Shown: in pieces, positions 23,075 through 24,196 of the stretch
How positions within the stretch are numbered: the first letter of the stretch is position 1
How the letters are laid out: every line of letters starts with the position of its first letter
Source of the DNA: Escherichia coli
Lineage (GTDB): Bacteria > Pseudomonadota > Gammaproteobacteria > Enterobacterales > Enterobacteriaceae
DNA length: 64,000 nt
NCBI RefSeq assembly: GCF_045037415.1
Contig: NZ_CP173438.1
Direction: 5' to 3' (one strand)
Notes under the pieces: model-generated
What the model saw: only the letters and a program-made list of their open reading frames with translations
Databases searched by the model: none
Told to the model about the DNA's origin: nothing
Translations under genes and position numbers: made by a program

Positions 23075-24196
23075 ATGAAAGTTAAAGTACTGTCCCTCCT
23101 GGTCCCAGCTCTGCTGGTAGCAGGCGCAGCAAACGCTGCTGAAGTTTACAACAAAGACGGCAACAAATTAGATCTGTACGGTAAAGTAGACGGCCTGCAC
23201 TATTTCTCTGACAACAAGTCAGAAGACGGCGACCAGACCTACATGCGTCTTGGCTTCAAAGGTGAAACTCAGGTTACTGACCAGCTGACCGGTTACGGCC
23301 AGTGGGAATATCAGATCCAGGGCAACAGCGCTGAAAACGAAAACAACTCCTGGACCCGTGTGGCATTCGCAGGTCTGAAATTCCAGGATGTGGGTTCTTT
23401 CGACTACGGTCGTAACTACGGCGTTGTTTATGACGTAACTTCCTGGACCGACGTACTGCCAGAATTCGGTGGCGACACTTACGGTTCTGACAACTTCATG
23501 CAGCAGCGTGGTAACGGCTTCGCGACCTATCGTAACACCGACTTCTTCGGTCTGGTTGACGGCCTGAACTTTGCTGTTCAGTACCAGGGTAAAAACGGTA
23601 GCGTAGATGGCGAAGGCATGACCAACAACGGTCGTGGTGCCCTGCGTCAGAACGGCGACGGCGTTGGCGGATCTATCACTTATGATTACGAAGGCTTCGG
23701 TATCGGTGCTGCTGTTTCTAGCTCCAAACGTACTGATGATCAGAACTTCGGCCTGAACGGTTATGGTGAGCGTTATTTGGGTAACGGCGACCGTGCTGAA
23801 ACCTACACTGGTGGTCTGAAATACGACGCTAACAACATCTACCTGGCTGCTCAGTATACCCAGACCTACAACGCAACTCGCGTAGGTTCCTTGGGTTGGG
23901 CAAACAAAGCACAGAACTTCGAAGCTGTTGCTCAGTACCAGTTCGACTTCGGTCTGCGTCCGTCTGTAGCCTACCTGCAGTCTAAAGGTAAAAACCTGGG
24001 TGTCATCAATGGTCGTAACTACGACGACGAAGATATCCTGAAATATGTTGATGTTGGTGCGACCTACTACTTCAACAAAAACATGTCCACCTACGTTGAC
24101 TACAAAATCAACCTGCTGGACGACAACCGCTTCACCCGTGACGCTGGCATCAACACTGATGACATCGTAGCTCTGGGTCTGGTTTACCAGTTCTAA
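23075..24196 (+). CDS. ompC: outer membrane porin OmpC (373-aa allele)
   Basis: N-terminus [37 protein letters not shown]; porin beta-barrel ending in a C-terminal Phe (..LVYQF). Confidence 0.95.

Follow-up and report, generated by a model that had tools for sequence, protein, structure and literature searches.

Is the OmpC of this Escherichia coli strain an unusual porin, or a familiar allele whose external loops differ from those of K-12? The window, the whole 64,000-nucleotide stretch of E. coli DNA that was analysed, carries ompC at 23075..24196 on the plus strand, as an open reading frame with an ATG start and 373 codons followed by a stop, and its product is WP_000865587.1. First-pass annotation from the letters of the sequence had described an OmpC with changed surface-loop segments and had proposed that phage susceptibility may be altered. 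OmpC is a general-diffusion osmoporin, a trimeric 16-stranded β-barrel regulated by OmpR/EnvZ and small RNAs. The answer reached here is that the window ompC is almost certainly the intact chromosomal gene of an O25b:H4-ST131-type strain, and the normal and already described allele of the ST131 lineage.

The ompC gene and its chromosomal setting

The window protein scored 760.1 bits against the NCBIfam model for porin OmpC (NF007841; cut-off 484) and 475 bits against Pfam Porin_1 (PF00267), whereas the models of the sister porins remained below their cut-offs (OmpF, 480 against 583; PhoE, 455 against 599). The OmpC score, together with the many complete genomes whose annotated ompC is 100% identical, establishes 23075..24196 as a real gene. 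Its signal peptide of 21 codons (23075..23137, plus strand), delimited by alignment with K-12, is the same as in K-12, and the mature chains of solved OmpC structures start at residue 22 of the window protein. The protein ends in VYQF, with the C-terminal aromatic residue that acts as an outer-membrane assembly signal. An antisense open reading frame of 345 amino acids (23219..24256, minus strand) was also considered and rejected as a gene; it lies wholly opposite the conserved, codon-biased ompC and is without independent support.

E. coli genomes encode several related porins, and a megablast search with the window ompC hit a median of 2 sites per genome. Both facts would be compatible with a gene other than ompC itself: a paralogue or a porin gained by horizontal transfer (OmpN, OmpF, PhoE or a prophage porin of the NmpC/Lc type), or else a decayed copy. 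However, the gene lies in the canonical ompC locus beside micF, and the reading frame is intact from signal peptide to C-terminal YQF. Synteny and the family scores given above thus rule out paralogue or pseudogene status, and the probability left to such an origin is negligible.

The gene order at the locus is rcsD, micF, ompC, apbE, ada and alkB, the same as in K-12 and in JJ1887, so that ompC occupies the chromosomal site between micF/rcsD and apbE. On this flank rcsD is located at 19664..22336 (minus strand), and the small RNA gene micF, divergent from ompC, at 22648..22741 (minus strand), where it matches Rfam RF00033 over its full length with 116.8 bits against a gathering threshold of 79. 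The sole difference from K-12 in micF is found at window position 22659, with G instead of A on the plus strand, within the terminator hairpin loop; this change is probably without effect. The promoter-proximal region and 5′ leader (22895..23074, plus strand), comprising the 180 bases before the ATG, show no difference from K-12, and the substitution closest to the ATG lies at 22894 (−181). The identity of these 180 upstream bases is consistent with unchanged regulation of ompC. A scan for consensus promoters returned no more sites than were found in shuffled sequence. Past the stop codon, a hairpin with a T run behind it, resembling an intrinsic terminator (24215..24234, plus strand), is the same as in K-12.

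Loop differences from K-12 and their origin

The reference was the ompC locus of K-12 MG1655 (NC_000913.3), whose OmpC has 367 residues, and substitutions are numbered along the K-12 precursor. In the protein alignment 345 of 377 columns were identical, and the 32 that differed comprised 18 substitutions and 14 indel columns. Relative to K-12 OmpC (2J1N), the locus, signal peptide, barrel, L2, L3 and L6 are shared, and the window protein is six residues longer because its L4 is 4 residues shorter while its L5 and L7 are 6 and 4 residues longer, respectively. The length of 373 residues reported by the first-pass annotation, against 367 in K-12, was borne out by the translation and the MG1655 protein. 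The three segments that it had quoted as unlike K-12 correspond to window residues 172–192, 216–240 and 305–323 and do differ, and its account of the K-12 sequence proved accurate on direct alignment with MG1655.

Loop boundaries were taken as the strand limits of an AF2 model of the window protein, built from an alignment that included diverse porins from a cluster-representative search, and the gene was compared with that of K-12 codon by codon. In the model (pLDDT 91.8, pTM 0.88), DSSP assigned 16 barrel strands, with L3 spanning 29 residues, and Foldseek placed it on 2J1N with a TM of 0.96 and an rmsd of 1.5 Å, and on 9WCB with a TM of 0.98. The external loops L1, L4, L5, L7 and L8 hold 29 of the 32 differing columns (15 of 18 substitutions plus every one of the 14 indel columns), and non-synonymous changes are enriched in external loops (Fisher p = 3e-7). 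In the codon comparison, no amino-acid difference from K-12 was found in L2, L3 or L6.

The changes are unevenly shared among the loops, all of which are encoded on the plus strand. L1 (residues 46–55; 23210..23239) differs by D49S and V50E, and L8 (residues 347–363; 24113..24163) by Q346R and N357D, at window residues 352 and 363. L4 (residues 172–195; 23588..23659) carries five substitutions (N176S, P177V, S178D, V186M and D192G) and a four-residue deletion of GFTS. L5 (residues 219–239; 23729..23791) carries the six-residue insertion LNGYGE and five substitutions (A226D, T229F, A230G, A231R and I233L), and L7 (residues 307–318; 23993..24028) the four-residue insertion GVIN together with G309N. 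The constriction loop L3 (residues 116–144; 23420..23506) has the K-12 protein sequence, with 2 synonymous changes only. The barrel strands show three conservative changes, G216A, I218V and L296V, in strands 9 and 13. Since the other 15 substitutions and every indel column fall in external loops, the differences are neither a matter of transmembrane strands nor of a mistaken K-12 sequence. The model thus supports the first-pass placement of the differences in surface loops.

The loops themselves have been catalogued. In a survey of 2,707 OmpC proteins of E. coli, comprising more than 220 distinct sequences, Beck et al. (2016; PMC5056734) found the variation to be focused on L4 (33 types), L5 (30) and L7 (13), which occur in many combinations. 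Window L4 (residues 173–193) is allele c7 of their S2 Table, L5 (residues 219–239) is c3, and L7 (residues 307–318) is e (PMC5056734). In their S1 Table, the combination c7/c3/e is variant 131, listed with SE15, NA114, AA86 and others, and all three of its loops equal those of the window (PMC5056734). In the rows covered, the variant is entered without an asterisk, and it apparently falls outside the alleles assayed for CDI (PMC5056734).

How did these loops arise? In 200-base bins over 14 kb, DNA identity to K-12 was observed to run at a background of 93–100%, mostly 96–99%, and to fall to 71% at 23600–23800 and 91% at 24000–24200. The synonymous differences are clustered as well, with 11 of 24 lying within the 62-codon block from L4 to L5. 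Given these identity dips and clustered synonymous differences, exchange of an old diverged block fits better than recent point mutation. Some of the differences, those of L1 and L8, are single substitutions, as would be expected if the loops had diverged inside the lineage through point mutations and short indels, and not by recombinational assortment of existing loop variants. Such an origin is nonetheless very improbable for the allele. It would not account for the crowding of synonymous differences in the L4-to-L5 block, and the same loops recur elsewhere in other company: in the catalogue, L4 c7 is found with L5 b1, b4, b5, b8, c2, c3 and c4, and L5 c3 with L7 b or e (PMC5056734). In addition, the annotations of Shigella flexneri and Escherichia albertii include very similar OmpC proteins of 373 residues. 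These proteins (P0005, P0006, P0008 and P0013) have the long L5 type and differ from the window protein by 8–14 residues, which suggests, from their sequences, that the long L5 type is common to several species.

The solved chains closest to the window protein are 9WCB, 2XE1 and the K-12 chain 2J1N. The first of them, and the closest, is EDL933 OmpC solved together with the phage central tail fibre A8 gpJ (736 bits, 95% identity). Its L7 is the same as in the window and its L4 nearly so, with S178 and E188, whereas its L5 is of the short type SPLYIGNGD, 6 residues shorter than the window L5; small differences are also present in L1 and L8. The OmpC of 2XE1 and of the clinical series 2XE2, 2XE3, 2XE5 and 2XG6 is the same porin with an L7 of equal length. 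However, the L4 of 2XE1 is long and of the b type, with an NDPDFTGH insertion, and its L5 is short (WDQNNTGLIGTGD), unlike those of the window protein. The clinical series carries pore mutations linked to drug resistance. The PDB title of 2XE1 gives no strain name, and its assignment to uropathogenic E. coli CFT073 would follow from a match of its loops to the CFT073 alleles of Beck et al.

Pore lining and permeability

Does the altered surface extend to the pore? The window protein retains K37, R58, R95 and R145 (precursor numbering), the basic ladder of the OmpC pore. It also retains G132, G137 and the arginine equivalent to R195 (window R191), which were taken as pore sites from Patino-Navarrete et al. 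(2020; PMC6970295). None of the pore-lumen positions checked for a change of charge relative to K-12 (L3, the R195 equivalent in L4 and the basic ladder) was found to be altered. One change comes near: D192G, also in L4, takes away a negative charge three positions from Arg195, which lies in the vestibule and affects β-lactam entry (Patino-Navarrete et al., 2020; PMC6970295). At the pore mouth, D192G may have a small effect on permeation.

OmpC alleles of reduced permeability are known. The phylogroup D/ST38 allele, R195L and G137D are natural variants that recombination carries from one lineage to another, and they have an altered lumen charge and lower β-lactam susceptibility, whereas the window protein keeps the K-12 lumen (PMC6970295). 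The spread of such alleles, the position of D192G close to Arg195, and the changes carried by public close relatives could together suggest that the window allele is itself antibiotic-adapted, in the manner of those variants or of the clinical OmpC20-33 series. These relatives are otherwise the same as the window allele, and each has a single change at a pore or vestibule residue (K37N/E/T, R58L, R145C or R191C). From their sequences, they would be pore mutants of the ST131 allele that antibiotics have selected. However, the window is wild type at each of these residues, K37 (23183–23185), R58 (23246–23248), R145 (23507–23509) and R191 (23645–23647). R95, L3, G132 and G137 are likewise kept, and 402 ST131 genomes were reported to be without pore-lumen change in OmpC (Patino-Navarrete et al., 2020; PMC6970295). 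With L3 and the basic ladder conserved, a reduced-permeability allele was rejected, and the chance that the window carries one appears very small. The preferred reading is thus a loop variant with a K-12-like pore, and an intact pore lining would indicate no porin-based loss of β-lactam entry.

Lineage, frequency and surface recognition

How common is this allele? Megablast with the window ompC found the gene in 5,425 of 5,426 complete E. coli genomes, with 532 matching records at ≥99% identity, 829 at 95–99%, 3,441 at 90–95% and 627 at 80–90%. From this spread, divergence on the scale seen against K-12 is the norm for ompC. At the DNA level, at least 40 complete E. coli genomes carry an ompC that is 100% identical to that of the window, among them the O25b:H4-ST131 strains EC958 and JJ1887. 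These two strains share the accession WP_000865587.1, named porin OmpC, which is present in at least 1000 contigs of a large collection. The first-pass annotation had proposed an alignment with OmpC of typed strains, and the match to EC958 (O25b:H4-ST131) is complete. Among the near-identical records, labels of ST131 or O25b:H4 are carried only by EC958 and one strain named O25b:H4. No difference from the window OmpC was detected in variant 131, EC958 or JJ1887, with SE15 and NA114 compared by their loops. The allele is common in the ST131 lineage, not rare.

The surroundings point to the same lineage. Window positions 1–42953 are 99.993% identical to EC958 (O25b:H4-ST131; NZ_HG941718.1, 2490001–2532952, reverse strand).

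The only differences from EC958 over that stretch are an indel in napA and two SNPs, at window positions 108 and 3900, where the window has T and EC958 has C. In napA, whose ATG lies at 32524, an extra T relative to EC958 is present at 32589, at about codon 22 and inside the Tat signal peptide. The site reads GCC GGT TCT CAG in the window and GCC GGT CTC AGC in EC958, and the resulting frameshift leads to an early stop; the remainder of napA is seen as a TTG-started open reading frame at 32564..35011. An 81-base napA sequence with the extra T was found in 17 of 5,420 complete E. coli genomes, and by this recurrence the insertion looks like a real sub-lineage variant. From its sequence, napA, encoding the periplasmic nitrate reductase, is a probable pseudogene in this strain. 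In addition, the EC958 annotation contains a frameshifted, truncated autotransporter β-barrel pseudogene beside tRNA-Pro and narP (locus L004, 18611–19533), which by extrapolation from the EC958 match would fall at about window 45400–46400.

What is known about the recognition of these loops? A 2026 preprint reported that EC958 becomes resistant to phage LUC4 after loss of ompC, ompR or envZ, and that an OmpC-less host becomes LUC4-sensitive with cloned EC958 ompC. By these experiments, EC958 OmpC is the receptor of LUC4. The window OmpC allele is therefore already known, both as a catalogued loop combination and as an OmpC shown to be a phage receptor. The first-pass annotation had named the OmpC loops as receptors of phages and colicins; the phage part holds, as seen with LUC4 and EC958 OmpC, while the colicin part was imprecisely worded. 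The usual colicin translocator is OmpF, not OmpC.

Allele-dependent recognition has been observed in two further systems. Brodel et al. (2024; PMC11338833) found that two gpJ chimeras deliver in an allele-dependent manner across 23 OmpC variants, and that chimera A8 delivers DNA well through OmpC of the ST131 strain TN03. We infer that TN03 carries the same OmpC allele as the window. L4 and L5 were found to determine whether OmpC is recognised by the CdiA of E. coli 536 (Beck et al., 2016; PMC5056734). An effect of OmpC loop variation on phage and CdiA recognition is thus supported by both studies (PMC5056734, PMC11338833).

These observations can be arranged into a simple picture. The window OmpC would have a normal osmoporin role, as expected from its family and the cited experiments, and with barrel, L3 and charged pore lining unchanged its diffusion properties should be about those of K-12. 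The outward surface is what has changed, with L4, L5 and L7 swapped for other loop variants of the species and with minor changes in L1 and L8. These loops would be where antibodies, class II CdiA effectors and the receptor-binding proteins of phages make contact, and the OmpC allele would therefore set which of these agents recognise the cell. A further step, that c7/c3/e aids the ecological success of ST131 through escape from the most frequent OmpC-dependent phages and from class II CdiA effectors of rival gut E. coli, or through marking of "self" for contact-dependent systems of its own, and that D192G slightly shifts the entry of solutes or antibiotics, is speculative and has only a slim chance of being correct. 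The non-pandemic relatives SE15 and AA86 share the c7/c3/e combination (PMC5056734). Overall, the window ompC allele adds no new biology and its practical value is modest: the ST131-type OmpC surface helps to predict which OmpC-dependent phages, engineered phage particles and CdiA toxins could target the strain.
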